DNA of 62,004 nt, filler included, from Hausera hauseri (taxonomy: Eukaryota): assembly GCA_046269625.1 (NCBI GenBank). It is 11 parts of 11 records of this genome, joined end to end, with 100 filler letters (N's around TTAATTAATTAA, not from the genome) between each part and the next. Parts side by side here need not be neighbours in the genome. Positions count along the whole stretch, not along the records: positions 38,963 to 52,397 come from JBJURY010810975.1; 10 more parts are not named here. One strand, written 5' to 3'. The notes beneath the pieces were generated by a model that did not search any database, had not been told where the DNA came from, and saw only the letters and a program-made list of their open reading frames with translations. Shown in pieces: positions 533 through 60,299 of this stretch. The position numbers and the translations under genes are program-made. Position 1 is the first letter of the stretch, and every line of letters starts with the position of its first letter.

Positions 533-539
533 ATTACAC

Positions 540-9746: not shown

Positions 9747-9799
9747 TTTTGCCGCTATGATACACGGCAAGTCCTAGCAAAGGTAACAGCCAGCAAAAA

Positions 9800-13800: not shown

Positions 13801-13866
13801 AACACTTTCTTTTTTGCGGTTTTCTCTCTATTTTTACCCTTTATAGTTTTTATTTTGCCACGTGGA

Positions 13867-18435: not shown

Positions 18436-18439
18436 TGCT

Positions 18440-20404: not shown

Positions 20405-21340
20405 AACAGAGATGATTAGTGCTGTAGGAGCTGCTGTGATGGTTACGTTATCCCATATGGAACGTTTTTGTTGGTAATACGAAGCATAGGGATTAATTAG
20501 AATAGTCATCTCTTTTTTATCAGTTGAGAATTTCACCGGTGGCGTCGTGATCCTCTGTTGTATATCATTGTATTCTTTCTTATTCTTATATCGTATGAAC
20601 ACCGTTGGTCCTTTTCTATGCATTTTATTCTTGAATTTTCCATGTTCCTTTCGTGACAAAGTGTACTTCACATCATATATTTCGCCTCTTGTTATGTTAC
20701 AACAGACTTGTTGTTCATTTGTTATTTCACATTTCGATGATCTTTGCTTACATCCTATTTCTTTTATGGATATTGTTATCCATAGGATGTATTTCAATTT
20801 TATCCTACTCCTAATTTCGAGACAACTTTGTCCACTTTTAAATCCCATTGGTCTTATTATTAACTGGACGAGTATTATTTCATCTAATAATGTTTCATTC
20901 ATTTCATGTCTATTGGGAACTTGTATATACTTATAAAATTTAGTATATAAACTATAATAATAGTTTTCCTTTTCTTTATGAGTGTAAGATATACTCGATG
21001 TGTCCCCGAAGTGTCTATCACACATCGCGTTTCATTTGTCGATGAACGGAGCATACAGTCGTTATATTGTTCATTAAAGTTCTTATTATAACCGTGGACT
21101 GGGGTTATTTGTATCTTTATGACATACTCCCTAGGCATTCGTCTTGTAGTGTACCAGATAATGCATTTTTTGCCTTTCATGGAGTACGTTAATTGGTATT
21201 TTAAGCTTTTTAACCATAGGTTCTCGTTTATGGCCGTGGCATGTCGTATCTTGGCTTGTTTGACTTCTGAATTAGTCATCTGTGTTATCATTATAGGAAA
21301 TAACAAGATGATGATCAGTAATAGGACATTTTTTATCTGG
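20405..21340 (-). pseudogene. Secreted/membrane protein fused downstream of integrase (copy D)
   Basis: NVLLLIIILLFPIMITQ is in frame with the integrase GPY tail. Two Cys-patterned domains follow (CDRHFGDT; CLEIRSR..C..VCCNI) that parallel copy C (CCDLDFGQT; CIRIETK). Confidence 0.65.
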
Positions 21341-21419
21341 AGTTTACTTGTTGTATCTATTTCAATTACTTCCTCACTAATGCTACATACCGATTCTTTT
21401 TCACCTTTTCTTAACTCGC

Positions 21420-24400
21420 TCTCCTTGGCAGCGTGCTTGCATCGATTAATGTGAACTTTAACAAAAGTGTTATTTTTCCTCAAACAGATATTCGATAGGT
21501 CTACCTTTTCTACTTCATATGGTCCTTTATATGGTCTATCTAATTTAGACGTTTTACATTTCTTAATTATCGGTGAATATAACATTACTTGATCGCCTAT
21601 CTTAATCTTCGGCTATTTGGTCTTTTGATCGTAGTACTTTTTATATTTTTGTTTATAATCTTTCTGATTATCACCAATCATCTTATATGCTAACTGGAGG
21701 CGTTCCTGCATTAACTGCTTATAATCATCTATTTCCATTAGGTGTGAAATGGGTTTCACATTAAAATCTAGATCGATTGGTAATCTTGCATCCCGTAAAT
21801 ACATTAAATAAAAGGGTGTCTCTTTAGTAGCCTCATGAACCGATGTCCGGTTTACGAAAACACATGCATTGATATATTTGTCCCAATCGTCTTGCCTGGT
21901 ATTTACCACCGTTTGTAATTTCCCTTTTAAATCTCCAATATACATTTCAACCATTCCATTATTCTCTGGTTGTCCTGGCGTGGATCATGACTTTAATATC
22001 TTCAGGATGTCATATATGGACTGCATTACAGTTCCATTTAAATTTGATTCTTGGGGCTCCATAATTAAATACTATATTTTCTACGAATTTCTCAGCGATT
22101 GTGTCTGCTTTCATGTCAGGCATAGGAAGGGCCACAACCCATCTCGTAAAATAGTCGATGAATACTAAGACGTATTTATTTCCATTTCGTGTCAATGAAA
22201 ATGGCCCTGTTATATCCATCGCGGTAAATTCGAATGGTGCTGGAGGGTAGTCCCATATCTTTAATGATGCTTTGAATTTTGCTCCTGTGTTTTTCCGAGT
22301 AGCACACAGCTTGCAGCTCTCGCACCACTTTTGTACATCTTTCGTTATCGTTGGCCAAAAATATTTCAGTTTTAATTTGTTTAGTGTCTTATTGGCTGAT
22401 TTGTGTCTACCAAGTAATCCATCATGATATTGAGTCAGTAAAACTGCTCTAGTTTTCTTGGGAATTACTAACGCAGGTCCATTTTGACTAATAAAATATA
22501 GAAATCCTTCTTTTTCCTCGTAGGCTTCGCTGAATCGAGCCAGATGACGGGTTAGCTCTCTGTCAATTGGTATGGTTTTATCTTTTGTGTATTTTCTAAT
22601 GGCTTTTATTTCAACATCTTCATTTTGATTTGCCTTAATTTTCTCAATTGATCCATCCATACTCCATACGGCTGCGACTACTGCCTTTGTTTCTTTTTTA
22701 TCGAGCATTCTCCATAAATAGTCGGCGTTAGCATTTTGTGTTCCAGGCTTATACTGGAAATTCAATGTATATGGTTGTAACTTTAAAGCCCATCGTAGTA
22801 GTCTGCTGTTTGGGTTCTCATGTTGCTTTAGCCATTGTAGCGGTCTATGATCCGTATAAATCAAGAGCGGTTTATTTTCGCTAATATACGGTGAAAATAC
22901 TTCTAAGGCAAATATCACTGCTAATAGCTCTTTTTCTATTACAGCGTATTTCTTTTGATACTTATTAAGTTTTCGTGATGCATAAGCTACTGGGTGTGAT
23001 TTTCCGTCTTCACCCTTTTGTGATAATACTGCTCCTATTCCATAATCACTTGCATCTGTTGCCAGAATAAATGGTTTGGTCATGTCTGGATAAATTAATA
23101 TAGGAGCCGTTAATAATTTGTTATTTAGATGTTCAAAGGCTTTTTGACATTTGCTTGTCCATATAACTTTATCTAAATCTTCACGTAATAACTCATACAA
23201 AGGTTTCGCAATTTTGCTAAAATCCTTTATGAATCTTCGGTAATAGTTTGCTAGACCTAGAAACTGACGTAATTTTTTAACGGTACCTGGCTTAGGAAAA
23301 TTCCTTATTTTTCCTAAGAGCTTATACTGAGGTTTTACAGTTTGCCTGTCTACTTTATGTCCGAGGAAATCTACCTCTGCTTGAGCAAATAAACATTTAT
23401 TGGGATTTATCTTTAGCCCCATTATTTCGCATCTATCAAAGAGATCCTGTAGATCCTTCAGATGTTGTTGAAAATTTGATGATGCTATTATTACGTCATC
23501 TATATATACCATGGCGTGTGGAACGTCTAATAGTAGGAGTTCTGTTCCTCTTTGAAATGTTGGTGGTCCATTCTTTAACTCAAAGTGCATCCTATTAAAT
23601 TTCAATAGCCCTTCTCCAATTGAGAAAGCCGTCTTTGGTTTATCTTCTTCTTTGACTTCCACTTGCCAATAACCTTTTTGTAGATAGATGGTTGTGAATA
23701 TGGTCAATCCGTGTAATTTGTCTAGTATCTCGTCAATTCTTGGTAGTGGATATGTATCGGTCTCCGTTATTTCGTTCAAAGCTCTATAGTCTATACAAAA
23801 TCTCATAGTACTATCTTTCTTTTTAACCATCACTAGGGTCGCTGTCCATGGGGAGCAACTTGGTCAAATTATCTTATTTTCTCTCATCCCTTTTATTATT
23901 TTACCAGCTTCCTGTTTTTTACCATATGCTAATCGATACGGTCTTTTCTTAATTGGCTTGTCCTGTCCGTCCTTCAACTTAATGACGTGCTGTATTACTT
24001 TCATTGTACCTAGATCATAGTCAGTTTGTGCAAATCGACTGGCATTCTTTTCTAATAATTCGATTAGCATCTCCTTTTCTTCCTTACTTAGAATTTCGCA
24101 TTTTTGCAACCTCTCGTTCCAGTTGAACTTCATGGTTTTATTTCTTTTGTCTTCGTCGGGTTTCTTCTTCAATTTTTCTGTCATCATCTTCTCTATTTTA
24201 TCTGCATCTAATATTATTGAGCAGATTTCTTCTTTTATTATTTCTTTAGTGATCGTTACTTTTCACAGTCTAGTAGCCTTCCGTAATCGTTTTTCTTTGT
24301 TTATTGTGTTACAGATTCGTAAGTGGATCTTTCTATCTTTTGCTTTATCTACCTGAGAGGCGATTAGTACCTCATATTTTTCCATAACCTGTGGAGATAG

Positions 24401-38962: not shown

Positions 38963-39925
38963 ACTCAAGGAGCAATAAAACCAGATAAAGAACGGGCTAA
39001 CATAACGAAACTAGATGACATAGTACAATCGATGGACCCAATCAAATGGGTATTAAATGAAAATATAGCCAATATTTCAGCTAATAAGAACGACAAATGT
39101 ATCCAAATAGACACAAAAGGAAGACTGTCCAGTAAACAAGAAATCTCAGTCCAATTTACGAAATTAAAGGAGTCAAGTCCAATGCCTGAATATTGTAGTC
39201 TAAAGATCACAAATCTTAGCATCTGTTGTAAAATTGCAGCATGTCATGAATATAGGATTCATTTTGACCTCTATAGAACCCAAATAAATAGATCGAGTAT
39301 CTATTTAGGAAGATATTATCCAGACAATAGAATCTGGAAAACTTCGGTTGAAACGACTACAACTAGCCGAACTGTCCCAGTAAGCACTACTGTTAGGCTT
39401 ACTATGACAAAAAAAGATGAACAAGAAGAAATTACTTAAGATTCCGGTAAATACTCTGCGCAGCAACACAAAATACTATTTTCAGTGGAAGAGAAACTCA
39501 ACTATAATATCGAAATATACTGTCGTACTATGTATAAAAGTGTGAAAACAACTTTATGGAAAGGCTCATATCACACTGAATGTAACTCATTAGTATCCAA
39601 GACAGAATACATAATCCAAATGCATGCAAAAGATGCTCAGAGTCAGACGCTCACAATACAGACCCTAGAAGAACTACAAATAGCACCATATGGAGACAAA
39701 AACACAAAACAAGAAATAACTACAGAGATAACAATTACAAAACCCAAAGGATTGACCACATTATCAATAGTAATGGTCGTAAGTCTGTCAACGCTTGTGT
39801 TTATAATATGTCTTGCGACATTTCGATTAGTTGCCGTAAATTGTCATACTAAGCGTACCAAAATCGTAGAACGGAAATTAAGGGTATGGGAACCCCAAGA
39901 ATACGTCTATGATAAAATAACCTGA
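38963..39925 (+). pseudogene. Type I membrane protein: Cys domain, Thr-rich linker, FN3-like domain, TM, YDKIT tail
   Basis: ECNSLVSKTEYIIQMHAK (FN3 C-terminal signature) and TM LSIVMVVSLSTLVFIICLATFRLVAV. One frame break near 39440. Confidence 0.75.
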
Positions 39926-40043
39926 TTATTACAGATCGGGTTATTCTATCATCAAACAAAGAATTTGTTTTGGTTTAAAAACTATACTTTGTTTTGAGAT
40001 TAACCCTTACTGTCTATTGTTTAAATTGATAAGTATCCAGATG
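39909..40043 (+). promoter_or_regulatory. Conserved double hairpin plus branch-point/acceptor-like signal (copy A; homologs at 46150-46287 minus and 53740-53864 plus)
   Basis: Stems ATGATAAAATAACCTGAT/ATCGGGTTATTCTATCAT and AAACAAAG/CTTTGTTT, then GATTAAC and a T-rich tract before the ATG. Confidence 0.7.
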
Positions 40044-42530
40044 GATTGCGGAATCAGCCGACGTAGCATCGACAATCAATTGGGATCAGGAAGCAGCCGA
40101 CGTAGTATTGACGATCAGGTCAAAAAATCGAATTCAGGAAGGAGCCGACGTAGCATCGACGATTTCCTGCAGAATTGTGCAACAGTATTAATCCCTCCAT
40201 CTAAGTCAATCTTCCGACAAATCAATAACGAACTACTCGCAAAACAATTCGTGGAATACAAACGAACACATGAGATCCCAAATAACTTAAAAGGCAGTAC
40301 CGAGGAAAACCGGACAGTACGATTATATGCAATGAGAGAGGATAAGAACGTGCGAGCGTACGCATTAGAACAACTCGTTCAATACGAACCAGTATATTAC
40401 CAGAATATATTTATTCACTTAGCGGACGGAGGAATCTATTACAGATTAAAAGATCAAAGTTGGGACTCTGCGCAAGGACGCCAACACAGATATAGTATTT
40501 TCCTAATCATTAGCAGAGATTTCCACCATTACAATTGTGAATTAGAATTTCGAGTCGCCGCATTGCCTATCAAACTTATCATAGAAGTATGTTATGAAGG
40601 CGCACCATTTATCCAGTTACCACCATTACGATTCCATTAAAGGCCAACTGAGAAGGATCAAGACGACCACTTACACTCCTTCAAATTAGTCCAAGACGAT
40701 AGAAATGCCAGGATAATTACTGTAGATTACGGAGAAGCAGATGATGACGTCCCAATCGGGGTATCTGTACGAGAGACAGGAGGAACAGAAATCTACGCAG
40801 AATTGATCACTCCCAAGAAGAGAGTACGAGAAACTTGTCTAGAAGTTACTGGAATCAAAAAGGAGCAATTAGTTAACGGAAGAGACATCGAATTAGTTCG
40901 CAAAAAATTACTCCGTTGCCTGTATGGAAGTATACTTGTTGGATATCAAATAGAAAAGATCGTGGAAAGTTGAAATTACCCGATACCCACGTGAGTTGGG
41001 TTAGAGAAATCGAGACCCACCCAATAGTCATGCAGCAGATGGAACAAACCGTTCGCAAGAAGAATGGTTATTTACCACCGACAGTAGAAGGCCGATTTAA
41101 GCCAATGTTGGAAGCTATGAGTGAAGAAGACGTTCGAATTAATAGACTCTTTACAGCGAGCCAACGTTTCCAATATCTAAAAGATATATATTCAGGACTT
41201 AAATGGAAACACGAATGGACTTTCGATAACCCTAGACAAAATTTGCGAAACACAACAAACCCCGAAGGATTAATTTCCAAACACAGAAAGCATTTTAGGC
41301 CGTATTCCCCCGTCAGAATGGTTGAATCAACAACAAGGGACAAACAATTACCCCAGCACCAGTAAAAGCCCAAATTCAGAGGCGGCCGAGCAAAAATCTA
41401 AGGATCAAAAATAATTAAGGGTACCGACAAAACCCGAAAGAAACCAAAAAGGCAAAGAAGAAGCTACATTTTCCACGGGAAAAAGGAAACTATCCCTATA
41501 CGAATACTTATTCAAAAAGAAGAATAATGGAGAAGACAACCGAAAGGTAGTTGCAAAACCTGAAAAGCCTGAAAAGACAGAAACTTAAAACGAAATAATA
41601 AAAAAAGAATCTCCGAGCACCGAAACCCTAAATAACAAAAAAGAAATGCACTCCGAAGAAATAAAAAGAAAGAAGAGAATTCAAACCCAAAGGAGAAAAT
41701 CAGACAGCGATATCGTTACCATTGAAGTGAACGTCTTGAAAAAGAAAATATTAGAAGAAAATGTGTATTTCTCCACGAACAAAGAATTTCCCAGACTACT
41801 CTTAACGGCCGAATATTGTAGCCATAAGAAAATAAAGGAAGCAATGTTCTATGTGAAAAACGCTGGAATACAAGAAACACCAGATGGAGCATACGCTTGG
41901 GAAAATCTCAGCATAGGAAATTATTTAGCCCCAATTTTTTGGTCCAAAAGGACTGGAAAGCTGTTTCTTCCTGTGAACAACCAAATTAAACTAATGTTTA
42001 AAAGGCAATATCAAGCTTACCAAAAGGAAGGTGAGATTCCCGACTTAGATAAAGAAACCATTATGGACTGGACATTAGTCCCAGTAAATTATGATCCTAA
42101 AAAGAGTTCAATTAACACCCAACAAAAAGAACTATACGGTTACCTATATTCCGATCAAGACGGACTAATATTTGAACGAATCCAGATTATACCCAAGGTT
42201 GACTTGGACGATGACGGAAACACGAATGAGAATGAAGACACTTGCCCAGTATGTAACGAGAATATCTGGCAAGGTTACGTTAAATTGGACAACCAAGCGT
42301 GTAGACACAGATACTGTCGCACGTGTTTAGAGACGTGGACGTTGGATAACGGAAAAACGACATGTCCAGTATGCCTAGCCGAGGCTGATGGGTTAAAATT
42401 TTTTTCGAACGGTGAGTGTAACAGATCCGTTCCTATACAAAGTCAGCCCAGTACTAACTATACAATAGAGGTGGAACAAGTTGACGACAGTAGTCTCCGG
42501 AGTAGACTGGACCTACTGCGCCGACAGTAA
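40041..42530 (+). pseudogene. Accessory ORF (about 830 codons): unknown N-domain, DEDDh-like exonuclease fold, Lys/Glu-rich linker, unknown domain, C3HC4 RING
   Basis: RIITVDYGE...VSVRETGG..I..P...VTGIKKEQL..G..I..V....L.G.ILVGY, and CPVC-x15-CRH..C..C-x12-CPVC. Broken by a few stops and frameshifts. Confidence 0.8.
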
Positions 42531-43359: not shown

Positions 43360-43660
43360 CTTATATACTAATGCAACTGCGTACGTGACTGATTTCATTT
43401 ATTATTTTTGGAATTATAAAGTTTTTAACTTAATTGTTCGGTATTATCCGATTTAAAGATTAATATAAATTCAACGCTTTCTCCAAAAATTTTACAAAAT
43501 ATACCAAATTATTGCTAAATTCTTTCTCTATATTTGTACAAATTCCTAAGTTCGTACAATAATGATAAATACCATAAAATAATAATTATTTACAATTTGC
43601 TGCTGATAATAGTATTTACAATTTTTGGACGTCTTTGCAATACTGGACGTCTTTACAACA
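43360..43660 (-). repeat. Interrupted 3' LTR of copy B (first 301 bp)
   Basis: Minus strand PPT CAGGAGGAGAAA then TGTTG. Ends at TATATAAG, directly abutting the end of the copy A LTR. Confidence 0.8.
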
Positions 43661-46151
43661 TTTCTCCTCCTGAATGGCATCCTCGGATGTGCCTATTGCG
43701 TCAGGAGAGGTGCCGTGAGAACGAGGCGAACGTAATAATTCCATACGTTGTCTTAAACTGGTTTCAAAGCTGGTACTTGGTTGGCTTTCTCTGGGATTTG
43801 TTTCCAATTCGTAACTGTAGTATGGTTTTGTCCTAACTACCCGAGTATAACTACCGTTGGAATAGTAATTCAAATCAGCAGCCTCAGCTCTACATACTGG
43901 ACATGTGGTTTTTCCATTATCCAACGTACATTTCTCCATGCAGTCTCGGCAATATTTGTGTCGGCAATCCGGGTTATTTAGTTCTACATATCCTTGCTTC
44001 AGATTCGCCTCACATACGGGGCATTCATGCTCTTCTCTCTCATAATTTCGATAGGTTCTATTATCAACACTTCTTCATCTTGGTATAAGTAGGCATATAT
44101 TCTCTTCTGTTTCGGATTTATTGAGCTTTTCTTGGGATCACATCCCACGGTTATTAGAGTCCAATCGCTGATAGTACCTCGATTTAAATCGAGAACTTCA
44201 CCAGTCGATCGGTATTTTTGATATTGTTTCTTTAGTAACAACTTTATTGATTTATCCACGGGGACTAGAAGTTTGCCATATCGGTGCAACGTATTTTCCG
44301 ATCTTAGGATTTTCCCAGACATAAGTGTTCTCGTAGACTTGTCTGGCGGGCATTAATTTGACGAAAAACATCGCCTCTTTGATCCTTTGTTTACTATAGT
44401 ATTCTGTCGCAACCAACATTTTAGGATAATGCTTTGTAGTGGCGTAATGTATGTTGTCCGTAGAGTTCTTCTTCCGTAATATATTTATTTCCGTTATCCG
44501 TTCCTTCTGTTTGCTCGTTATCCTTGTAGACTTCTCAGTATGGGTTTGAATAGTCGTTTTTGATGATCTTTTTGCTTGTATTCTTGGACTGTTGGTTCGC
44601 TTTATTTTTGAATCCTTATTGTCTGATCTGCGCCCTTCTTTTGGTTCATTTTCCCATTTACTTTTTTTCTTGAATAAATATTTGAGGAAGGAGGTTTTCC
44701 TCTTAGCTATCTTTCCGATTTCGATTTCTGGAATTCTGTCTTTTTCTTCTAGGTACTTTCAGGGAACTTCGGGTATTTTAAATAAATTATTATTTTCAGC
44801 GTTCTCCATAGTTGACGCGGCGCAATAACTTGTACTTGGCCTTTCCTCTGTTTTTAGTTTATTTCCCGTTTTCTTGGTTCTCAATCCTTGGATCGTTATT
44901 TGATAATTCCACTTTGGTGTCATTTCGACGTTTCATGGTGGAGAGTATGGGCAGAAGTGTTTTTTGTATCGTGTACTGACCCCTTCAAGTTTGGGAAAAC
45001 TTCGTAGGTTCTGTCCGGGGTTATTGGGAATCCATTCATGTTCTCATCTTAATCCAGCGTTTGTGTCTCTTATATACTGGGATCGTTGACTAGCGATCAA
45101 CAGTCGGCTTATTTTTATGTTTCCTACGGTCATTGCCTCTACCATTAACTTAAATCGGCCTTCCACGGTCGGTGGTAGATGACCCTTTTTCTCTTTAACC
45201 TTGATATCCATTTGTCCCATTACAGTTGGGTGGGTCTCTATCTCTCTGATTCCGGCTAGGTGAGTTACTGGTATGTTTAATTCCTCTATCATTCTTTCTA
45301 CTTGATACCCCACTAAGACGTATCCGTATAGGCACTGTGCTACTTCCTTTTGCACTAATTTAGAATTTTTTCCGTGTATTAATTGTTCTCGTTTAATCCC
45401 AGTTACTTCTGCATAGGTTTCTTGTACTTTCTTTCTTGGGTTAATGATTTTCGAACAGACCTCGGCCCCATTTTCTTCTCGTATGAAAATTTCAATTGGG
45501 ATATAATTTCCTTCATCTCCTTCTCCATAGGCTATTGCGGCAATTCTGATGTTCCTGTCATCGGTTACTAATTTGAATGAGTGTAGATGCGCGTCCTGTT
45601 CTTCTTCAGTGGGCCTTTGCTTAAATTCTAAGGGCGGCAATGTAGTGGTTATTGTTTCCTCTTTAGTTATTTCGACTATCATTTTCACAGGTAATGCAGC
45701 TATACGAAATTCCAACTCGTAATTGTGGAAACTTCTACTGTTAAATACTAACGTGCTAAACCGGCTTTGTCTTCCTTTGGAATGAATCCCATTTTTGGTC
45801 TTTTAGCCGATAATAGATTTCCCCGTCGGCTAAGTGTACATATATTTTCTGTTCCTTGTCCGTTTGGTGCTGGGTGATCTGTTTCAAGGGGTATGCTCTG
45901 GCATCCTTATCTTCTCTCCATGCATATAAATATATAGCTCTGGCCTCTTCAGTTGTTTCTTTTAAATGGTTTTGTATATCGTCGATTTTTGTGTACTGAA
46001 TGAAGTTTTGTCCTTGCAATTCTGTGTTGATTTGCCTATAGATGGCTTTTGAGTTCGGGATACGTACAGTCACATACTGTTCCAAAAATTCGTCGATGCT
46101 AAGTCGGCTCGTATTTTTCTCATCGTCGATGCTAAGTCGGCTCGGGTTCAT
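43616..46151 (-). pseudogene. Accessory ORF copy B (DEDDh-like fold plus RING)
   Basis: IAAIAYGE...IINPRKKV...EVTGIKREQL..G.....VQKEVAQCLYGYVLVGY, and CPVCEANL...CRHKYCRDC...TCPVCR. Confidence 0.82.
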
Positions 46152-46270
46152 TTGGATCTGATTACTTACCAATCTGAAAAAAAGACATAAAGGTTAATCT
46201 TAAAACAAAGGATGGTCTTAAACTAAAACCAATTCTTTGTTTGATGATAGAATAACCTGGTCTGTAATTG

Positions 46271-47700
46271 TCAGGTTATTTTATCATACGGATCTACCGG
46301 GTTTTTCAATTCCCTTAATTCCCATTCGGAGTTTTTAGGACGCTTAGAATAACGGTTTTTGGTAACTAGTCGAAAAATCGCAATTAACATAATGAGAACA
46401 AACGTTGACAGTGCAGAGATGGATACGATCGACAGTGTAGTTAATCCCATTGGTGTTTGTGTGGTGACTAGAGTTGTGATTTCCTCATCTACATCCTCAT
46501 ATGAATGCTACTCTGCACGAGTTTCGCCTAAGGTACACAATGTGATGGTTTGGTTTTGTTTATTCTCTGCATGCACTTGTACTATGTATTCGGTTTGTGG
46601 TTTTAATAAGTTGCACTATGTTTGATAAGTATTTTCAAATAGCGTCACAATTTTATTATTATATGTTGTTTGACAACTTATTTATATATTGTAGTTTTGT
46701 TTCTTTTTCACAAATAACACAATTTTAGATCGATATGCCGAATATTTAATTGGAATGCTTCCTAATTCTCTTTTAGGCACACGGCTTGACGTAGCGGTTA
46801 CCGTAACGGCACTAACTCGAGTGGCTGGCTTTTTAGTGGTCAATTCTACTGTGATTTTCCATATTCAATTTTCTGGATAATAAGTTCGTAATTGTACACT
46901 TGATTTGTTAGGTCGTACCTCGTACAAGTCGAATTTTATTCTAAACTCTTGGTTCACGGGTAGTTTGCAACAAGGGTGTTGTACGCCTGCGCAAATAGAA
47001 CAATATTTTATTTTCAGAGTTGGTCTATTAGCTGCTTCGAATGTGATACTAATTTCTCGACTGATAGTTAACTCTGTTTGGGCATCTACTTGGATGCATT
47101 GTTTCTGCTTGTTTACAGAGATTCTCCAAATATTTTCGTCTAATAGTCTTACATCTGGGTCGGTAGATCGTAGCATTTCGCTGGGTTTTACTCCATGATG
47201 TCTGTTCCATGCATGAATGACTAATTGAAATTGTGGTTTTACTTCGATATAAACTTCGATTGAGTCTGGTAAGTATAGGCGATAAATAAGGTTATAAATA
47301 CGTCCAAAATCTATGTCGCAACTCTGCGTATTTTCTCCAGGCTCAAAATCACAATTCTTCGCTTCTTTCGTTGTTACATCATATAAACCAATCTGAAATC
47401 TTCCGAAATCGTGGTGTGGCCTCCAAGCCTAAAATCCAACACATACTGTATTTGGCGAGTAATAATGAATTGTCATTTATTGTAACAATTTAATATCTTC
47501 TTGTCTTTGAATTTCTTCGACTGTTGGTTTCTTCTTCGTTTTAATTGTTTCCGGTTTTGCTCCACTCTTCCGAATTCCATATATATCTCCTAACGTAGAT
47601 TCATCGTGCCACCTTTGAATCTGTGTTCGCAGAATATAAGAAGCAATTAATGATAATGCTAAAACTATCTGAACATATGATATTGGTCTAGCAATTATTG
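46271..47700 (-). pseudogene. Type I membrane protein copy B (signal-like segment, two Cys domains, FN3-like domain, TM, YDKIT)
   Basis: ISYVQIVLALSLIASYIL follows the integrase end KRYNLRQRK in frame. CNLLKPQTEYIVQVHAEN; TM GLTTLSIVSISALSTFVLIMLIAIF. Confidence 0.75.
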
Positions 47701-47719
47701 AGGAAGTTTTTACCTTACG

Positions 47720-50700
47720 TTGACGTAAATTATAACGTTTATTGGGCCGTATTTCCGTCTTAACAACTCTTTGTACTGACACGATTTCTTCCTTTCCGTT
47801 TTTGTTGATGTACACCGTGGTTGGTGTAACTCTGGTAACTTCGTACGGTCCTCTGCCTGTACGAGTTAATTTCAATGAGGTGCCTTTTTTGGCTACGGGA
47901 TAGTGTACATAAACTCAATTCCCTTGTTCTAAATCGTGCGGTTTAGTTTTCTTATCATATTGCTTTTTAAACTGCTCTTGATATTCTTGAGACAACTCTT
48001 TGGCGATTTCCCAACATTTTTGCAATCGCACCTGTAATGCTTCTGCAAAATTCTGTTCCAAGTCTTCCGGCTTTACCGTGTAGGGCGTCATTCCTAAGTC
48101 TGTACGTAACACAGCTTCACGTCCATACATCATAAAAATGGCGTAAATCCTGTTGCTGGATGCGGAGTAATATTAATTGCAAATTGAGTTCCTTCTAAAA
48201 ATTCGTCCGAATCTTTTTTGTCCTAAGCTACTACGGTTGATAGTATAGGTATGACAATTGCATTCATTCGATCAACTATTCCATTACACTGCGGATGATA
48301 CGCAGTTGTGGTTAACCTTACGATTTCAAATATTTTGCTAATCTTCTCGAATAGTTCACTGTCAATATTTGGTCTGGCGGTCCATATCGGCAAATGATTC
48401 TTCTAACCACAACTTTGGCCAAGGTTTCTTCCTTTTGATCAATTAGCGCTATTCGACAAAATGAGTTAGTCGATCAATACAAGTCAAGATGTAATTATTG
48501 TCCTTGTGTATCGTAGGTAGCGGTCCTACGATATCCATTGATATGGCCTGCATGGGTCTATCCGGTACGTTGATTGGTTTCAGTTCTGCCATGCATTTTT
48601 TGTCTTCTTTTGTTTCGTCGCACATACTTTACAAGCATTCACCCAATTTTTTACATCAATATAGATACTGGGCCAAAAGTACTTATTCAATATTCTTTCC
48701 AGCGTCTTTTTCCATATGTGTCCTGCTAAATATGAATCATGTTCTGCCATTAAGACTTCGGTTCGTAAACTCTTAGGAATGACTATCAGTTTTCTTCCTT
48801 TCCGTTCGTGATATAAGATATCTACATTACTTTTGTCATTTAAGACGCAGTATTTATGTCCCTGCCTGTGTAAATGTTTCTTTGCCGTCCTTTTGGTATG
48901 ATGGCCTTTTTACCAAATTCTATAATTTGCTGAATAACTTTATCCTTCCTTTGTTCGATGGAAATTTTAATCGTTTTATCCATTGTTAAGACGCGACTTT
49001 TCTTCATTATGGTGATTACACTTGTTTTCGTCCTGAATCTTGATAGTGCATCGGCATCTACATGTTTATTTCCTGGTTTATATTGGAATTCAATATTGTA
49101 TCTAGAGATTTCTTCGATCCATCTATTAAGTCTGCGTGTCGGATTATTTGCTTGGCCTTTTAAGGTCGTGACGGCTTTATGGTCAGTGACAATTATAATT
49201 TTCTGCCCGCACACATAAACGTTGAAATTTCTAAGCGATTCTTTTACTGCTAGGGTTTCTAATTCAGTAACAGAATAATTTTTCTCGGCTTTCTTCAGGG
49301 AACGTCCTCAATAAGCAGTTGGGTGTTCTAATTCTTCATCTTTTCTTTTCTGCGCTAATTCATATCCAATACTTTCTTTAGTGGCATCTGTTTTGATTAA
49401 AAAAGGTGAATTGAAGTCTGGATATCGTAGAACTGGTTCACTTTTTAATATTTTCTTCATTTTGTCGAAGACTTTCTGTTCGACATCCGTCCATTTCCAT
49501 TTAATTCCCTTTTTGAATAGTCGGTACAGAGGTGCATTAATTTTTGAGTTATCCGGTACGTAGGTGGCATAATATCCACAAAGGCCTAGCCAATATCTTA
49601 ACTCTTTCTGATTTTGAGGTTCCATGCAGTCTGATATCTTGTTTAATATTGATTTGTCCGGTTTTGATCCTCCTTCTTTGACTATATGGCCAAATTAAGA
49701 TACTGCGTTCTGTGCCCATTTACTTTTCGGATTTAATTTTAATCCGGCCTGTTCTAGTCCCATCAACGTGTGTTCAATATCCTTTAAGTGTTCCTCTTCC
49801 GTTCTTGACGCTATCATTACATCGTCTAAATATGCAAAAGCAGGGTCTAACCCCAATAATATTTTGTTTATCATCCCTGTAAATATGGCCGGTCCGGTAT
49901 TAATACCAAAGGGCATTACGTTGTATTCATAAACACCATTGTGTCTTGAACGCTGTTTTATATCGATCTTTGTCTTCGATTTCTACTTGCCAAAATTCGG
50001 ATTGTAAATCCAGATATGGTAAGCCATTTTGCCCCTAAGAGTCTATCCAGAGCCTCTTTTACACATGGCATTGAAAAAGAATCTTTCATCATGAAATTAT
50101 TTAGTCCTCTGTAGTCGATACAGAATCGATGTTTCTTAGTACCTTTCTTTTTAACCATGAGGATTGGTGAGTACCAGGATCTATAACTGGGCCTAATTAT
50201 ATCGGCCTTAAGCATTCGCTTGACTTCTTTTGTTATCTTGGGTCTTAGTGAAAGTGGCGGAGGATACCATTTCGGCATTTTTTGATCTTCAAGATCTATC
50301 TCTTCATTCGAACCAGGCTTCTTCTGAAGCGGAATAGTCAACTTTAATGACTTTGCCCTGCCAATATCTTCGTCGTTCTGAGCAATAATCGACTTATAGC
50401 GACACAATAATTCATAGAATTGACAATATGATTCAGGTGAAGACTTAGTTTCAACATGCGGTGGGAAATCGGCATACTTGTAAGAATTTTCTTCAGTACT
50501 TATAGATGACACCCTATACGTATCTCCTAAAGTCGTATAGGCATGAAGTTTTACGGGGGTCGGTACATTATTTTCTATCCTGATCGTCAAACGACCGGAG
50601 TATACTCTTGTCAATAAGTTACTGAGTATTGTATTTGGATTCAATGTCTCCTTTGGTTCAAAATATACCGGTTGATCATCATCTTGTTGAACATGCGCGT

Positions 50701-51140
50701 AAATTATTATTTCTGTTTTCGGCGGAATGTTTTTATTTACTGGTATCCATACTTCCCCAAATTTTCTATCCTTCGTGTTTTTTACACCTTTATTCGGCCT
50801 AATTTCTATTAATTTTCCCGTTTGTAAGTCTATTGCTATATTCTGTAGCCTTTTTTATAGGTCACACCCTAAAACTACGTAGTCAGTTAATTGTTCCATG
50901 ATTGCAAATTCGTGACGGAAGAACTGTCCGACTATTTGGACTTCTGGGTTCCATTTGAACATTGGTTTCGACATTTGGCCAAAAGCTCCTCTGCTGCCTG
51001 GGTCTTCCGTAAATGATGGGTATAACTGTCCTCTTAAGGTTTGAGGTATACAATCTATTTTAATGTAAGACATCTCAGAAACCGCATCAATTAATGCGTA
51101 AACCTCCCAGTCTTCAAGAATGATTTTGGCGAAGGGTCTT
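47720..51140 (-). pseudogene. pol copy B (PR, RT, RNase H, integrase)
   Basis: YALIDAVSE and VVLGCD (PR), RFCIDYRGLN and YLDDV (RT), KTDAT and VTDHKA (RH), IDIVGPLP, YHPQCNG and GRGPYEV (IN). Confidence 0.93.
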
Positions 51141-51829
51141 CTTTCTATTACTGTTCCAAAACAGTTTGATGCAACTTTTGGACGCTTATTCGCCGATATT
51201 TTATGTCCGTTGATTCAGATTTCTGGGGAGGATATTATGTTTTCTGATCATTGTCTTAGTTCTCCGTTTGGATATAATCCATTGTTTTCCACGTCCAATT
51301 CTTTCGTTTCATGAGTACTAAATAATGGTTCTCGATTGTTCGTGTGAGGCTCTATATTCCGGAAAGTTTTTAACCTTGGATTTTCCCAGACAAGTGATCT
51401 AGTCTCTATGTTCCGAGGTTCTCTCGGGGAATACAATATTTTAGGGTCAACCATGGGTTGTCGATAACATATTTTTCGTAGGACTCCATAACGTTTCGTT
51501 CCTTTATAGGGGTCTTCTAAACTAATTGTCCTCTTATAGATTTTTGTATGATACGATTTCATTGATCGCTTGTCACAATCTTCGTAAACTGGAGCAGTAG
51601 GGAGTAGCATAGGCAGTGGTGCTTTAATGACGGAATACGTTCTGTGCCTTTCAGTTTTCGAAGGTACTTCTCCTCTCTTAGGCTCGTTATCATCTGAACT
51701 ATTCCTTTGTGTATTATGTTTCGTGATTTTCCGCTTGTTCAAGAACATAGGTTTCCTTTTTCGTTTACGATTATAGTAACTGACATGACGTTCTACGTCC
51801 GATTTCCATCTATTCTCTTCGTATGCTTT

Positions 51830-52397
51830 CAAAAACTTTCCAAAAGACGTTATAATTGCAGTTAGTATCTTGCATGAAAATCCAGTCAATGTAAATATTT
51901 CATAACCATTTATTACTGTTTGGATGACTGCCTTAATTATTTGTATCAGGAAATATATCGCTAAGAATCCGGATGCGGCTTGTCGAAAAATCAAAAATCT
52001 TCCCTAAGTTTTGTAGAGTATTTCTGTGGTTACCCTCTGGTAATGGTTTACGCCAAGCAGTGATTCCCATTTAGCTTGATATCTAGTATCATCTACTACC
52101 GAGGCCATGGCTCGATTTAATTCATGTGTCCGCTGTCGTGGAAAGGCAAGAAATTGTCTAAAGGCTTCAATATCTTTAGGCCTATATATGCCTTTTTGTG
52201 AGGTATCCTGGAACTTGTCGACGGTGATTCCTTTTGCAAGATTCGTGCCAGTTAGCTTCCTTGGGGCAGCAGTAATGCATCCATTAGGAAAACTGACCCA
52301 ATCTGTTTCTCTAAGTCTAAACATAAGCTCGCCCAAACTTGCCTTGCAATCTTAAAGGATTGTTGGTTCAGTTACGTTATCTAATAACACTAGTGAG
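51830..52397 (-). pseudogene. Chuvirus-like (class III-type) fusion glycoprotein, C-terminal part
   Basis: DC...LMFRL...W..FP, GIYRPKDIEAFRQFLAFP, T*GRFLIFRQAASGFLAIYFLIQIIKAVIQTVINGYEIFTLTGFSCKILTAI. This fits the recalled chuviral G pattern GIY...D....R....FP / W..F..FG..SAG......IK....T.IHGY.L....GWS..LL.A. Confidence 0.78.
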
Positions 52398-52497: not shown

Positions 52498-53756
52498 CTT
52501 CTTATGTACCCAAGGTGAAATCGATAACTATAGCCGAAAAACTACGATACGCGATGAAACGCAGGTATATCCAGAATATGAGTACACGATATGGATTGGA
52601 GCAAACCATGTGTATGGTTTGAAGCAAGCGAACCTATTAAGAACCACGTAAAACTTCAAATAACATTTGTAACCAGATACACGATGAGAACATGTGATTT
52701 TCCATACGGATATGAAAAAAGATGCTGTGATTTGGATTTTGGACAAACCTACGGATGCAGATTTCAAGTGCTTTATTCTAATCAGTTTGCAGCTCAAGTT
52801 TATATAATTACAGAACTCGTAATAAGAATGCCCCAACAAGAGGACGCAAACCAAGCCAAGACGGACGAAATAATCCGAAGCACTGACCCGTTTAAAAGAC
52901 TCTTAGATTATAACATTATGGGGATTTACAAGGACTTACAGAATCAGTGTATACGAATTGAGACCAAAATAGAGCTGCCTGGAGACAGACAAAATTCTGT
53001 CTCATTTATACCATTAAATGCTTACATTTCTAACCCGGAGTATTGTTATCTGGCCAGACACCTATCTACTACGTACTGTGTAATACAAATAGAACAGGAT
53101 TATCAGTTTTAATTCGACCTGTACAATACGTACCCCGGAGAACAAAGCACTTATTTAAGAGGATACTGTCCGAAAAACGGAATATGGAAACTGTCATTCC
53201 CAACCACTACGAAAAAACGGTCTACTGCTCCGAATACAACTCGCACTACTACGATCGTCACTTTGGATGGAATGCCAGGAAGCATACCGGTTAAGATTTT
53301 GGCAAAAAGCAATAAAATTCTATTTTTTGCTGAAGAGACGTTAAATCAAGACGCCAAAATTGAATGTCGCACCCTGCACACCAACCAAGTCGTGATCCTG
53401 AGAAAGAATAGTCAGGAAACTGAATGCAGGTCATTACGGCCGCAACATTACTATATAGTCAGAATCACTGCAAAGAGTAAGAACCCTAAAACGTACACAG
53501 TGTGGACTTTAGATAATAGAATTGAAATAATGCAGCATAAGGGTCTTAGTACCCAAAGTGTGTTCACCACAAATAGTTCCATCAAGGAAAATAATTTACC
53601 AATAATAGCTATATTTAATTTGCCTAGTTTCGTTCTTGTCACATTAAAGGCGATGATTTTTCTATTTTCCACAAATTGTAATAAAAGCTGTAAATATCAA
53701 AAAGGAGATAAAAGGGAAAAAAGCACCAAGACGGACTTTATGATAGCATAACCTGA
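52498..53756 (+). pseudogene. Type I membrane protein copy C
   Basis: Two Cys domains, ECRSLRPQHYYIVRITAKS (FN3-like) and a hydrophobic segment. An alternative frame ends LYDSIT*. Confidence 0.72.
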
Positions 53757-53861
53757 CAACTACAGAATGGATTATCCTACCATCAGACAGAGAAAATGTT
53801 TTGTTTCAAAACAATGATCTGTCTTAGGATTAACCTTTATTTTTATTTTAGCAGAGTAAGT

Positions 53862-56288
53862 ATGGCCAAGAAGGCGAAGAATCCACAGTCAGTTCCAATT
53901 TTGATATCGATGGCTTCCTACAGCAGCACGTCACGGTTCTTAAACCACTATCCAAAAGCTTATATCGACAAATTGGAGAAAATCTGAAAACGCAGAACTA
54001 TCCAGAGTTCGACCAAGAAAGTAAAATACCAAACGGACTAAAATGGGGTTTAGAAGAGAATCGACTGGTTCGATTATATGCCATGCGAAATCCGAAGGAT
54101 GCACGGGCATATCTTTTAAGAGATCTAATTCCATACGAGCCGACACATCAGCAATTGTACGTACATGTCGCTGATGGATAAATTCAATTCAGGATCGTAG
54201 GACAATCCTGGAGTACGCAAAAAGGGCAACAGTGGAAATTTAGTACTTATGAGCTATGCTGCTATAGCCTCATAAATTATGCTCTGGAATTCAGGATCGC
54301 GGACCTTCCGACCAAAATTATGATCGAGATGACGTGGTGAACAGAGGTAATGAAGCCACTACCACCGTTATTATACGTAAAGAAGCCATCAGAAGATGAA
54401 ATAGAGTAAATGGGAAATTGTATAGATTAGTCCCAGATGGCCGAAATACCCGGATATTAGCCGTAAACTATGAAGAAAAGGATGACGGATGGTATGTTCC
54501 GATTGAGGTCTCTATCAAAAATACTAATGGAGAACAGGTTGTAAATAAAATAATCGCACCATGAGCGATAAAAGGATACTTTTCCTGACGTTGAAGGAAT
54601 TACAAAAGTTCAGCTCGAAAAAGGAAAGGATTTCTTGTAGATCCAAGAAGATATAAGCCATTGCTTATATGGATATATTGTTACCGGATTCCGAGTGCAC
54701 AAAGCGTTGGAACGATTAGGAATTAGGCAAGAATATATAGCCGGAATTCGAGAATTGAGCCAAAACCCAGCAGTTGTGAGCCAAGTAGAAAATACCTTGA
54801 TGCGGAAAACAGGTTGCCTGCTTCCGTCAGCATTGCGCGAATCGCAATTTTAGATGATGCTAGAAGCCATGAATGTCGAACGATCCAAATTCCATAACCT
54901 GATTAAAACAAGTCAACGGACCAAATTTATAAAAGATATCTATGACTCGTTACGATGGGATCACGAGTGGAAACCTAGAAATTACATGCAGAATGCGATA
55001 TTCGACAATAACCCCAAGATCCTAATACAAAAAATCCAAAAAGGATTTAGTAAATACCCGATTTATCGGCAAGTAGTACCCCAAGAACATAACCGATTTT
55101 GAGTGACAGTTCAAAATAATCCAGTAGAAGTTCCTAACAGCCAACAAAAACCAACGACCAGTCAAGCTCAAAAAGAAATAATAGTGAAATCAAATAACCC
55201 CGACAACTCAAGAAGGCAAAAGACAAAAACTTCCTTCCTGGAATATATTAGTAAGAAGAAGAGCAAACCTAGTAAAAATCAAACAGACGAAAACAAACCA
55301 GCAGCCGACAGCCCAATTCAGAAGGAACCGACAAACGATCAAAAGGAAATATCGAACCAACAAGGAACAAAGGAAAACAACGAAAATCAGTGAAGAACTA
55401 CCAAAACCGGATCGTTTAAGACAGAAGTTAACGTTCTTCGGAAAAACTGGGAGGAAGATACTACAATTATCGTTACAGAATTCGGTCAAGTGAAGGAATA
55501 TAAAAGAATCCTCGTCATGCCTGAGTATTATAGCAAATGTAAAATCAAAGCTATATTTTATGTATCCACTGTCCCTAGAAGAATAGTAAGTGGAAACGGG
55601 TATGCCAGAGAAGATACTACCATTGGCAGATACCTAGCCCCAATATTTCAATCAAAGAATGGCACTAACAGATTGACAATTCTCGTGGATACCCAAGTTA
55701 GAATTCAACTAAAAAGACAATACAAGAAAACTGGAGTACCCGACTTGGATAAATAGGAAATAGTTGAATGGACATTGGTTACGGTATCCGACGATCCGAA
55801 GAAAAATTCAATAGACCCCAATAAAAAGAGATTATACGGATATATATACCAAGACAAAGAGGGACTGGCATTCGAGAGAATAGAATGGATGAAAACCTTG
55901 TGGACATCGACGGAGCTGAAAAGGAAGAATGTCCCGTTTGCGACGCGGATCTCTATCAAGGATTCGTAGTACTGGACAACAAAGATTGCAGTCACAAATA
56001 TTGCCGGTACTGTTTAGAGACGTGGACCCTGAAAATGGGAAAACGACCTGTCCAGTATGCAGAGCCGAAGCTACAAGGCTGAGATACTACTCAAATGGAG
56101 AAAATAAGAAAATAGTAGAGATATTACCCGAGAAGGCCACTACGTCCTACCATTTTAACTTGCAATTGCCGTCGAACGAAACGGATTCGGAAGCGGACTT
56201 ACGCGGACGAATGAAGCGATTACACGGCACCTTTACTGACGCAATGGGCACATCCGAGAGTGCCGTTCAGGGAATAGAAATGTTGTGA
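53862..56288 (+). pseudogene. Accessory ORF copy C (DEDDh-like fold plus RING)
   Basis: RILAVNYEE...VPIEVSIKNTNGEQVVNKIIAP...GIT..QL..G......EDISHCLYGYIVTGF, and CPVCDADL...CSHKYCRYC...TCPVCR. More decayed than A or B. Confidence 0.78.
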
Positions 56289-56978: not shown

Positions 56979-57245
56979 AGTTGGCACTCGCTAGACTTGA
57001 CTTTTAGTGAAAAGTAACTACATATTAGCGATCAGCGCTACCACATCAAATAATTGATTGTAGATTGTTGTGAAATTGAAATTTGGGATTATAAGAAACC
57101 CTCAGTATTATAACGACATATTATTGGATCAAGAACGAATATTGATAGACATAAGTCAGACGATAACTTAAATCTCATTCTAAACGGTAAGGAGAATAGT
57201 GATTTTCGAGAAACACGTAATAGAGTTTATAGACAATGTAAGACG

Positions 57246-57704
57246 TTGATTAGACGCACTTTATCTGAAACAAATTTAGCTAATACTGAATCTATTGACT
57301 TAAACGCTGTTGAACAGCCTATTGAATTTAAAGTTCCTGATAAGAGAATTAGAGCTCGTAAGGTAGTTAAGCAAAATCTAGTAAACGTTGAGAATATTGT
57401 TGAAAATCAAGCAGTAGCTCAAAAATTGGATATTTTTACATTCGATTCTCTAAATCTTCAGGCGTACGACGGAGACCCGGACGGACTTAATGAGTTCTTA
57501 AGGACATATAAGTTGCATGCAGAAGGTGCTGGACTTGCAGCTAACGTGATGATTAAACGTTTGTCGTTGTATTTAAAGAATCTGGCCGCTGATGCCTATA
57601 GTGAACTCACTGACGAGGAGAAGAAAACTTGGTCCTCCTTGGTAGGAGCCCTGAATCGAAAATTGTTACCGACTGTAACTCCGCAGCAAAACTCATGGCT
57701 TTCC
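57246..57704 (+). CDS. Gag (capsid N-terminal region), partial
   Basis: AYDGDPDGLNEFLRTY...RLSLYLKNLAADAY..L......TWSSL..AL, downstream of the PBS. The start codon is uncertain. Confidence 0.85.
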
Positions 57705-58929
57705 NNNNNNNNNNNNNNNNNNNNNNNNNNNNNNNNNNNNNNNNNNNNTTAATTAATTAANNNNNNNNNNNNNNNNNNNNNNNNNNNNNNNNNNNNNNNN
57801 NNNNTCCATAGCTAGTTGGGTCGTCATACGTTGAAACAATGTCATTAACAAATTTAACACTTTCTTTCGTCTTATCTTTATTTTTACGTTCGTATTTGTG
57901 AATTAATGTATTCTCGGTTGATACATCCAACATAGACGAGCTTTCAAGAAAACATGGAAGCAAGCACGGTGAAAGACGTTCATTATCCATAGAATTCTGT
58001 TTCATAGACAAACCAGACATATTACAAAACTTATCACTGTCCAATATTTTTGGTATTTTAGAATCAAATATTTGATATTTTGAACTAATTTCAATATACG
58101 GAAAATTCGGATAGATCAAATATTGTTGTTGTCTAGACATGGGAAAACTATTGGAGAAGAAATAAAACTGCTAAATCGTTTTTACCTTGCTTTAGGACTT
58201 TGCAAACAAAAGAATTGACTCAAGAATATTCAAAAGACAATGTTTACAATTTTCGAAACTTTTACTTTTCAAATTCAGTAAAACAATTTTTTTGCAAGTA
58301 ATATACAAAAGTGTGTACACAATTTACTTATTAGAAAATCACTGTAATCGGCATTTAAAGTTAATAAACATAGCATGATCACAATATTTCCCATAATATT
58401 CATCATGAACAATAAATGTAACTATGTATGTTGGTATTTACAAAAAACATTGAGCAAATGATATCGCAATGAAGTCATAATAATAATAATAATAGAAAAA
58501 ATGCATTTTAAAATCAAAGATCAGGAGAGAAAAACAGCTCATTAAAGACTTGGTACATAAACAAAGGCAATTCAACGAGACCTCAAAACAGTTTGTGTAT
58601 AAACGCGCGTTTGTGTAGCACAGCTGTACAGAAACAATATGCAATCACAACCGTAGGAGGTAAGAAAGATGATATCAAAAGATAATCATTGGGGAAATAA
58701 GTCATTGTTGATTAGTGGAGTTGTACAGATCAAAATGGTTGTTAAGTTTAATTTAATGTTCGATGATCTGATAATTTTGTTATTACTGAAATCGGTCGGA
58801 CAATTGGCGAATCAATTTCACGAATGTTGTTGCAAATGCTGACAGCCGAATCACAACTGCGATTGTCGACGTCGATGACAGCTCTTTTAGCTTAACGACT
58901 TCGGATGATCGTGATGGTTTGTTTGTGTT

Positions 58930-59628
58930 TTAATATTTTAAACGAATCGTATGATAATTGTGGGGTTTTTGTTCTTGTACCGGTTGAGATTGTTGCTGTT
59001 TGGACCTCGACGGTCGACACTGATAAATTGATAATATTTCCGAACTGTTCAGCGTTTCGCTGTACACTTGGCTGCTGTCAATTCCACTGTCAAATTCATA
59101 GGTGTTGTTATTGTTAAAATGTTCCATGTGGTTGTTTAAATCTTTGGACAAATCAACACCAGATGTAGATGTCAAATAGGGCTGGGAAAAGAATCGCTGT
59201 CCACCGCTGATTGACATTTCTGGGTAATACGTTCGAAGAATTTGTGATGAATAAAATTCCGAACAAGTCTTACTGGAATCTTTAATCGTACTGTTGTCAT
59301 CGATGACGTCATGACAATCCTCGCAATACTGATCATGTTTCACGATCGTCGATGTTAGCGATAATGGAATGTTACAGCCGGCCAATCCGGTTGACCGAAA
59401 ACCGCTTTGTTGGTTTGTTAAATTAGTTTTCATCAAAGATTTATCGAAACTGGACCCTGAGTGCGAATTCGAGATCAATAACAATCGGCGTTTTTTCGAA
59501 CTAATATATTTATGGAAATAGATGAAAACGACAATCCATAAAATCGACGTGAGAAGAATGGACAGAATCACTATGATAATGATGATACTCAACCAGTGAT
59601 CGGATATCCATTTTGATCCGCCACTCAT
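58930..59628 (-). CDS. Probable host single-pass membrane protein, TM plus Ser-rich cytoplasmic tail (partial)
   Basis: WLSIIIIIVILSILLTSILWIVVFIYF followed by a basic stop-transfer segment (HKYISSKKRR). 232 codons open. Confidence 0.55.
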   Translation of the reverse strand: MSGGSKWISDHWLSIIIIIVILSILLTSILWIVVFIYFHKYISSKKRRLLLISNSHSGSSFDKSLMKTNLTNQQSGFRSTGLAGCNIPLSLTSTIVKHDQYCEDCHDVIDDNSTIKDSSKTCSEFYSSQILRTYYPEMSISGGQRFFSQPYLTSTSGVDLSKDLNNHMEHFNNNNTYEFDSGIDSSQVYSETLNSSEILSIYQCRPSRSKQQQSQPVQEQKPHNYHTIRLKY

Positions 59629-59749
59629 TGTATCCGATTTTGACGCAATACTGCTTTGATTTGGATCATACGGTTTTGTGATGTCAACGTTTCCCGAATG
59701 ATTTCTTTTTCTGCTGTTTGTTTCGCATACTTCTGTTCTAAAGTCAAAA

Positions 59750-60139: not shown

Positions 60140-60299
60140 AGCATTTTGTTGATAAATCGACTAATAAAACTGAGGAATTGGACCAGCTGAATGTACTGAA
60201 TGTTGAAGAGTATAAAAAATCATGCAAACGGGTATTATCTGCTACGATCGTCGGTGCTACATATGTTGCGAACGAACTGCTTCTGACCATCGACGAATT

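Follow-up and report, generated by a model that had tools for sequence, protein, structure and literature searches.

A second, FN3-like membrane protein predicted in frame behind the integrase of decayed gB-type Ty3/gypsy elements in Hausera hauseri

Retrotransposons that bear an env gene have so far been treated as having one surface protein. The closest described elements are the gB-type GAG-ENV-POL errantiviruses of Nematoda, Bryozoa and Platyhelminthes, whose env is of HSV/gB type (HSV, herpes simplex virus) (Chary and Hayashi, eLife 2026, PMC13524379), and Burro/GYPSM1 of planarians, an element of more than 30 kb in which a gypsy/mononegavirus fusion-like env lies in frame between gag and pol of a giant open reading frame (ORF), with ankyrin and RING-type domains as accessories (Arkhipova and Yushenova 2019, PMC6431247). 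The captures of nectin-3 by CrocERV31 and of KIT-ligand by CrocERV29 are surface or adhesion-type proteins located after pol, kept under purifying selection and speculated to play a part in infection (Chong et al. 2014, PMC4299795), and bdelloid long terminal repeat elements with an extra ORF3 encode a DEDD exonuclease and small transmembrane (TM) proteins as accessory ORFs past pol (Rodriguez et al. 2017, PMC5408684). Here we analyse a stretch of 62,004 nucleotides from Hausera hauseri (assembly GCA_046269625.1), made of 11 pieces joined by filler and called the window below, in which four related fragments of elements, A to D, are distributed over pieces 5, 9 and 10 (Table 1). To judge from its sequence, the region under study comes from a decayed Ty3/gypsy element, whose 3' end it forms; a fusogen of gB/Monjiviricetes type precedes pol, and behind the element's integrase the frame runs on into a predicted FN3-like membrane protein.

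The window family resembles the gB-type errantiviruses in its Ty3/gypsy pol and in the class III-type env before pol. The order protease, reverse transcriptase, RNase H and integrase with a GPY/F tail, which assigns copy B to the Ty3/gypsy elements (Metaviridae), is combined in it with the PF24664 env 5' of pol that characterizes the gB-type GAG-ENV-POL layout; the piece starts inside env, so that gag would fall outside it. The main text on those errantiviruses, compared by description, holds none of the words fibronectin, RING, exonuclease and polyprotein, and describes only chromodomains and no second membrane protein after the integrase (PMC13524379). In the Burro article the word fibronectin has 0 occurrences and the text describes no post-integrase module of signal, FN3 and TM (PMC6431247); the longest relatives of the window elements (3426-3735 amino acids) fall short of the Burro-like dimensions of >30 kb and an ORF of ~5000 amino acids and are without its BIR, BCL2 and MATH domains. 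The CrocERVs, as described, are vertebrate retroviruses with a recently captured, identifiable host mRNA (~76% identical) as a separate ORF, nectin-3 standing in place of env (PMC4299795), whereas the module of the window family is an old one without an identifiable donor, joined to the integrase and existing side by side with a fusogen. The bdelloid elements differ, in their published description, by separate ORFs, an exonuclease of DEDDy type and the lack of both FN3 and a gB-first layout (PMC5408684). Elements of gag-env-pol order are thus already known, and the second surface protein behind the integrase appears new: no description of a membrane protein fused there was found in the literature searched, which excluded subscription journals, Repbase notes, figure images and most supplements.

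The junction with the integrase is visible only in copies B and D, since A and C start within the ectodomain. In B the GPY codon lies at 47851 and a hydrophobic run resembling a signal peptide (47686-47621) follows 56 codons on, with neither a stop nor a methionine codon between; in D, whose integrase tail is 32% identical to that of B, the run follows 65 codons past GPY, again in frame and without methionine. The sequence-only reading of this locus, which had seen the run directly in frame behind the GPY tail in these two copies, is borne out. The membrane-protein frame of B contains 6 stops in 473 codons, compared with 38 in 472 and 29 in 472 for the other two frames, and is therefore regarded as a decayed gene. 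Identity to B is 41% for copy A and 31% for copy C, and in all three pairs identity is highest at second and lowest at third codon positions (first/second/third: B-A 0.58/0.65/0.45, B-C 0.48/0.61/0.41, A-C 0.53/0.60/0.37). A hydropathy pattern of type I membrane proteins (signal, ectodomain, single TM, short tail) is seen, topology and cleavage being predicted from it. The same reading had attributed Cys domains, a Thr-rich stalk, an FN3 signature and a TM to A, B and C; the pattern is present and the motifs could be located, except that A holds domains 2 and 3 only, and the ectodomain of B contains two Thr/Ser-rich stalks. Copy D is frameshifted past domain 1 and its piece stops short of any TM; against the family profile its domains score only weakly (domain E 0.011-0.045), and the MAFFT alignment placed its domain 1 onto domain 2.

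Variation at the junction was followed in one public run that contains the B family (18,237 contigs over 43500-52397, mostly 85-95% alike, covering 30 of 30 bins) and that, being perhaps the source of the window itself, does not count as independent of it. Across 47620-47880, covered by 1335 contigs, the 40 best-supported of about 80 listed differences comprised 32 that were both third-position and synonymous, none that introduced a stop or a methionine, and no listed indel. The share of third positions was 22/25 in the integrase, 5/7 in the linker and 5/8 in the signal, and 27 of the 32 listed variants within 47693-47880 fall on third codon positions. Since the variation is mostly synonymous, the frame was selected straight through the junction while the family spread; the in-frame fusion of integrase and membrane protein has, as far as these contigs indicate, evolved under purifying selection.

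Relatives, numbered with P, were drawn from a search with the pol of D among longer proteins (120 listed matches), P0125 being added by cluster look-up. One group of matches stands out at 46-51% identity; D nests inside this pol clade (SH 95 with P0072, SH-aLRT 88), and the pol of B gives its best scores against it (top 11 of 121). The P0072 record ends inside the integrase and so gives no tail state. P0125 encodes in succession, within one ORF of 3735 amino acids, gag, a signal, the PF24664 fusogen, a TM, protease, reverse transcriptase, RNase H, integrase, a second signal, two beta domains, a stalk, a TM and a tail. At least two hydrophobic segments after the integrase in the same ORF were found in 12 of 14 pol-clade proteins (13 clusters) and in 1 of the 97 mappable proteins among 107 other matches that served as controls, this one (P0101) being a pol-env fusion; within the protein set examined, the tail is confined to the gB-first clade. 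The same post-integrase layout occurs at the DNA level in the metagenome loci L001, L002 and L003. A search of viral contigs gave three distant loci, and among 83 loci the domain profile was matched by L002 and L003 only. The fusogen proposed upstream on the first reading is confirmed as PF24664 in B and recurs in P0125, P0027, P0028, P0038, P0044, P0045 and P0046; the env of P0125 aligns by tblastn to B at 52351-51830, with the fusogen TM near 51970, and the frame of the B fusogen continues, through two stops, to a protease motif at 51097. Gag is represented by zf-CCHC and a weak Ty3_capsid match in P0125 and by Retrotrans_gag in P0028. The P0046 polyprotein comes from a eukaryotic retroelement, yet its record assigns it to a Flavobacteriaceae metagenome-assembled genome, a likely case of bin contamination. 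Searched with a profile, 1.84 billion representatives yielded 67 matches, among them P0130 and P0133, the latter an intact 479-amino-acid homologue of the entire B protein (33% identity, E 3e-81). Signal cleavage is inferred from hydropathy together with the small residues that the relatives have on the cleavage side. An architecture of gag, gB, pol, signal, ectodomain and TM is very probable for these elements.

The continuity of the frame might be historical only, the protein being translated from a subgenomic or spliced mRNA of its own, like errantivirus env. P0133 is indeed called as an ORF of its own with a methionine ahead of the signal, and a methionine stands at the signal start in several relatives; B and D, however, have none from GPY to the hydrophobic run, the variants of the linker share the third-position bias of the integrase, the single ORF is retained in 12 of the 14 relatives, and the acceptor-like tract of the locus sits 3' of the membrane-protein gene and not 5' of it. 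Separate expression of this kind is accordingly judged very improbable.

The ectodomain is predicted from models to consist of three FN3-like domains, and not to have this fold in the third alone. AlphaFold2 gave a mean predicted local distance difference test score (pLDDT) of 46 for B and of 56 for P0133, in which domain 1 reaches 55-69, domain 2 75-82 and domain 3 69-79. The matches listed by Foldseek were tandem FN3 proteins (best E 1.7e-6 for B, 4.3e-9 for P0133). In VIA-align comparisons with a set of 48,161 chains, domain 3 of the P0133 model fitted domain D2 of IFNAR2 and fibronectin with a Z score of 9.5 (root-mean-square deviation 2.6-2.8 over 76-79 residues), domain 1 of copy B an FN3 monobody with 7.0 (3.0, 86 of 89 residues), and domain 2 of B reached 7.2 (3.0, 92 of 93 residues). 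The FN3 fold had been anticipated from the sequence; the two Cys domains, set apart there from the FN3 domain, do bear cysteines and are predicted to be FN3-like themselves. Domain 3 also resembles the domains of the relatives by hhalign (Prob 95%, E 2e-8), and a profile built from the relatives alone scores B3, A3 and C3 with 27-33 bits, a level reached by 0 of 200 shuffles of each. Domains 1 and 2 show a weak profile resemblance to each other (E 9e-4) and none to the domains of the relatives. The Pfam fn3 model (PF00041) matched domain 3 in 1 of 11 members with at best 16.8 bits (E 0.008), below the curated 25-bit cut-off, and for this reason the domains are called FN3-like.

Against Pfam, the whole membrane proteins of B, A and C gave nothing above cut-off, and phmmer of the B protein found 0 matches in the PDB. 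The family profile retrieved from the PDB (E up to 10) 14 sequences, of which 13 were receptors or matrix proteins of FN3 type (Dscam, tenascin, Tie2, PTPRF, contactin or Tn3), and the 27 new proteins scanned out of 62 profile-search matches comprised 19 with fn3, seven element-like ones without an fn3 match and one repeat surface protein. In the ESM Atlas, fn3 clusters came up among the features of P0133 at 0.83-0.85, below the 0.9 level, and this serves as a lead only. Word-index searches, one of them with the exonuclease ORF as query, found nothing.

The position of the protein is the usual one of env, and in P0101 a true Env is fused behind the integrase within one ORF; two further readings have therefore to be weighed, a divergent fusion protein and a host gene next to a dead element. 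No fusogen fold appeared among the top matches listed from the PDB or BFVD; those from BFVD were FN3/Ig-type tail and membrane proteins, and FN3 matches cover all three domains. The ectodomains of B, P0133 and P0125 contain no RxK/RR site, and a gB-type fusogen is already present in the element. There are no introns, the window holds four related copies, and intact relatives are element-borne. These readings retain a next to negligible probability, and the description of the protein as receptor- or adhesion-like and not fusogenic, already made from the sequence, has stood. Neither of the outcomes that would have spoken against that description, namely a fusion fold (or lack of an FN3 fold) and a stop ahead of the hydrophobic segment in intact copies, was found.

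In most relatives the slot behind the integrase is occupied by one to three FN3-like domains. It is filled by an Ig domain in P0044 (PF13927, E 1.5e-5) and by a Cys-rich ectodomain without Pfam match in P0028, P0035, P0038 and L001, so that the ectodomain is exchangeable between FN3, Ig and Cys-rich types. The env-like position, which holds for B, D and most relatives, is not invariable: L002 (E 8e-12, outside the training set), P0040 and P0177 have the same cassette of signal, FN3 and TM between env and protease as well. Extra protease copies stand between integrase and signal in P0027, P0028, P0041, P0045 and P0060, two of which have ankyrin repeats there as well. The polyproteins of these five and of L002 contain two to three aspartic-protease domains, some of them past the integrase, and ankyrin repeats occur in P0041, P0060 and P0177.

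The C-terminal tails carry short motifs. S/T-x-V/I/L-type C-terminal ends bind PDZ domains. Such an end closes the tail in 9 of 17 lineages and in 2 of 107 controls, and a final Val in 13 of 17 and 4 of 107, counts that describe a pattern and are no test, the lineages being interrelated and some controls partial. A conserved YxxPhi ends the tails of B, A, P0133 and P0130, and PPxY is found in those of P0028, P0035 and P0038. Retroviral Env tails undergo YxxL-driven endocytosis and bind Dlg, and both steer trafficking (PMC3395148).

Three unrelated ectodomain types in one slot, tail motifs more uniform than the ectodomains (PPxY included) and the occurrence of the cassette between env and protease would all be accommodated by a mainly topological role, in which Pol is held at the budding membrane by signal stub and TM, the tail supplies sorting or late-domain signals and the ectodomain serves as an interchangeable spacer on the luminal side. 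The ectodomain, however, shows purifying selection and conserved Cys across A, B and C; the TM of gB already tethers Pol, and a spacer needs less than one to three folded domains. We consider this role quite unlikely.

The explanation we favour, at a probability of roughly 55%, is that the predicted FN3-like type I membrane protein behind the integrase is a non-fusogenic attachment and trafficking partner of the upstream gB-type fusogen. The sequence-only reading, supported in part here, had suggested an attachment protein paired with that fusogen or a captured receptor mimic. The polyprotein would cross the membrane of the endoplasmic reticulum twice, first with signal, gB and TM and, after the cytosolic protease, reverse transcriptase, RNase H and integrase, a second time with the signal, ectodomain and TM described here. 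Signal peptidase would liberate the ectodomain, and the element protease would cut the integrase off the signal stub, a trimming step suggested by the extra protease that several relatives have exactly at this place. With Pol attached to the tail of gB, a free cytosolic C-terminus would be provided by the second protein alone, and the YxxPhi, PDZ-ligand-like or PPxY motif in it could direct the element towards contacts between cells or sites of budding. The ectodomain would bind a surface ligand on the target cell, membrane fusion being left to the gB-type protein. Herpesviruses (gD/gH-gL plus gB) and paramyxoviruses (H/G plus F) divide attachment and fusion between proteins, and herpesvirus gB requires partner proteins; the parallel is drawn as one of function and not of sequence or fold. 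Extension to the whole clade, with a two-component entry in which a class III fusogen before Pol cooperates in herpesvirus-like fashion with an exchangeable FN3, Ig or Cys-rich attachment protein after the integrase, and in which the PDZ-ligand or YxxPhi tail leads to cell junctions and contact-dependent spread, is put forward tentatively, at somewhat less than even odds.

The same architecture could instead act on the host cell: displayed by the cell that expresses it, the protein would be a receptor decoy or adhesion mimic (immune modulation, exclusion of superinfection, altered contact between cells). Among the best structural matches are adhesion molecules and cytokine receptors, PDZ-ligand-like ends are typical of junction proteins, and the elements bear further host-facing cargo (ankyrin repeats, RING, DEDD exonuclease). 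On the other hand, no donor gene and no single mimicked receptor emerged from the family-profile search, in which the cellular matches were long multi-FN3 proteins of unrelated taxa aligned over short stretches; a common ORF with Gag, gB and Pol fits a particle component, and in the protein set the tail is restricted to the gB-first clade. A role on the host cell seems unlikely, although it is to be taken seriously.

Several points weigh against the attachment partner that we prefer. The confidence of the structure models is low to middling, domains 1 and 2 attain Z scores of about 7-8 only, a level that may reflect just the common sandwich arrangement, and their match to the profile of the relatives is unclear (shuffles scored as high in 102 of 200 cases for B1 and 99 of 200 for C2); a shared fold by itself, moreover, shows no function. 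The kinship of the tails makes any p-value for the Val end overstated, and the window family lacks this end. B forms a long branch outside the supported outgroup, and its place in the clade is unsure. The post-integrase protein may be dispensable, to judge from P0027, which has gB and no post-integrase tail, and from P0044, with signal and Ig domain and no TM at the cut-off used. The closest intact homologue, P0133, is the one recorded as a stand-alone ORF. Finally, binding to gB is putative, as are signal cleavage and expression.

Table 1. Element fragments in the window and features of copies A to D
Feature	Position	Strand	Remarks
Element fragment A	38963 onward	+	
Element fragment B	52397-43600	-	piece 9
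Element fragment C	52498 onward	+	
Element fragment D	24556-20405	-	piece 5
A: domain 2, domain 3, TM, tail	38963..39925	+	one stop
C: domains 1-3, TM, tail	52582..53751	+	one stop
D: GPY tail of integrase, signal in frame, two Cys domains of weak similarity	20405..21612	-	frameshifted
B: C-terminal part of gB/Monjiviricetes-type fusogen	51248..52396	-	PF24664 E 7e-13 in 51248-52003; piece starts within fusogen
B: decayed pol (protease, reverse transcriptase, RNase H, integrase)	47708..51100	-	stops and frameshifts; tblastn of P0125; Pfam RT_RNaseH
B: integrase C-terminal (GPY) domain and basic linker	47687..47914	-	open, in frame with signal
B: internal signal-peptide-like hydrophobic run	47621..47686	-	hydropathy peak 2.29; near-identical segment in intact P0133
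B: charged spacer preceding domain 1	47474..47620	-	one stop at 47477-47479
B: domain 1, putative Cys-bearing FN3-like beta sandwich	47225..47473	-	weakest support
B: domain 2, putative Cys-bearing FN3-like beta sandwich	46847..47134	-	
B: Thr/Ser-rich stalk	46760..46846	-	low pLDDT
B: domain 3, FN3-like	46523..46759	-	conserved Cys pair; common to intact relatives
B: FN3 motif segment	46562-46606	-	
C: FN3 motif segment	53434-53478	+	
A: FN3 motif segment	39590-39631	+	
B: transmembrane helix	46355..46438	-	hydropathy 2.64; helical in B and P0133 models
B: 27-residue cytoplasmic tail ending in YxxPhi	46271..46354	-	stop at 46273-46271
B: non-coding stretch round and past stop	46170..46290	-	conserved in A, B, C (3 sequences only); two possible hairpins, then splice-acceptor-like tract
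B: separate decayed downstream ORF, DEDD-type exonuclease and RING finger	43616..46193	-	RNase_T E 0.03; RING E 5e-6

Downstream of the membrane protein, about 110 non-coding bases round the stop are conserved above coding DNA in A (39896-40050, +), B (46170-46290, -) and C (53727-53875, +). Past the two possible hairpins come a branch-point-like TTAAC, a pyrimidine tract and an AG immediately before the next ORF, and the stretch may control expression of the downstream gene. A DEDD exonuclease ORF homologous to that of B lies behind the polyprotein in L001 (5011-6525), L002 (10617-12104) and L003 (7268-8740 and 9043-10371); it is separate in all three intact loci, with two copies in L003, and in A, B and C it ends in a RING finger. 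The downstream ORF opens with a short SRRSID-like repeat in two to three copies (40080-40165, +, in A; 46090-46140, -, in B). Behind copy C, the start of a gag-like ORF (57114-57704, +) matches the N-terminus of P0125 (E 1e-5) and belongs to a following element or a tandem copy. Elsewhere, pieces 1 and 2 (1-8314) hold Polinton-like DNA polymerase B fragments, 85% alike, a label that comes from reading of the translations and not from a library match; a second, unrelated decayed gypsy family with Thr/Ser-rich 3' regions occupies 8415-20304, 24657-29291 and 57805-62004, and a talin-like FERM exon lies at 17894-18301. By this content the window is animal DNA.

If the attachment partner we propose is real, a swappable second surface protein would explain how a conserved gB-type fusogen acquires cell specificity, and would be a candidate for how such elements get to the invertebrate germ line. 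Moreover, the published GAG-ENV-POL annotations (1512 elements) may conceal a fourth gene within the ORF named POL.

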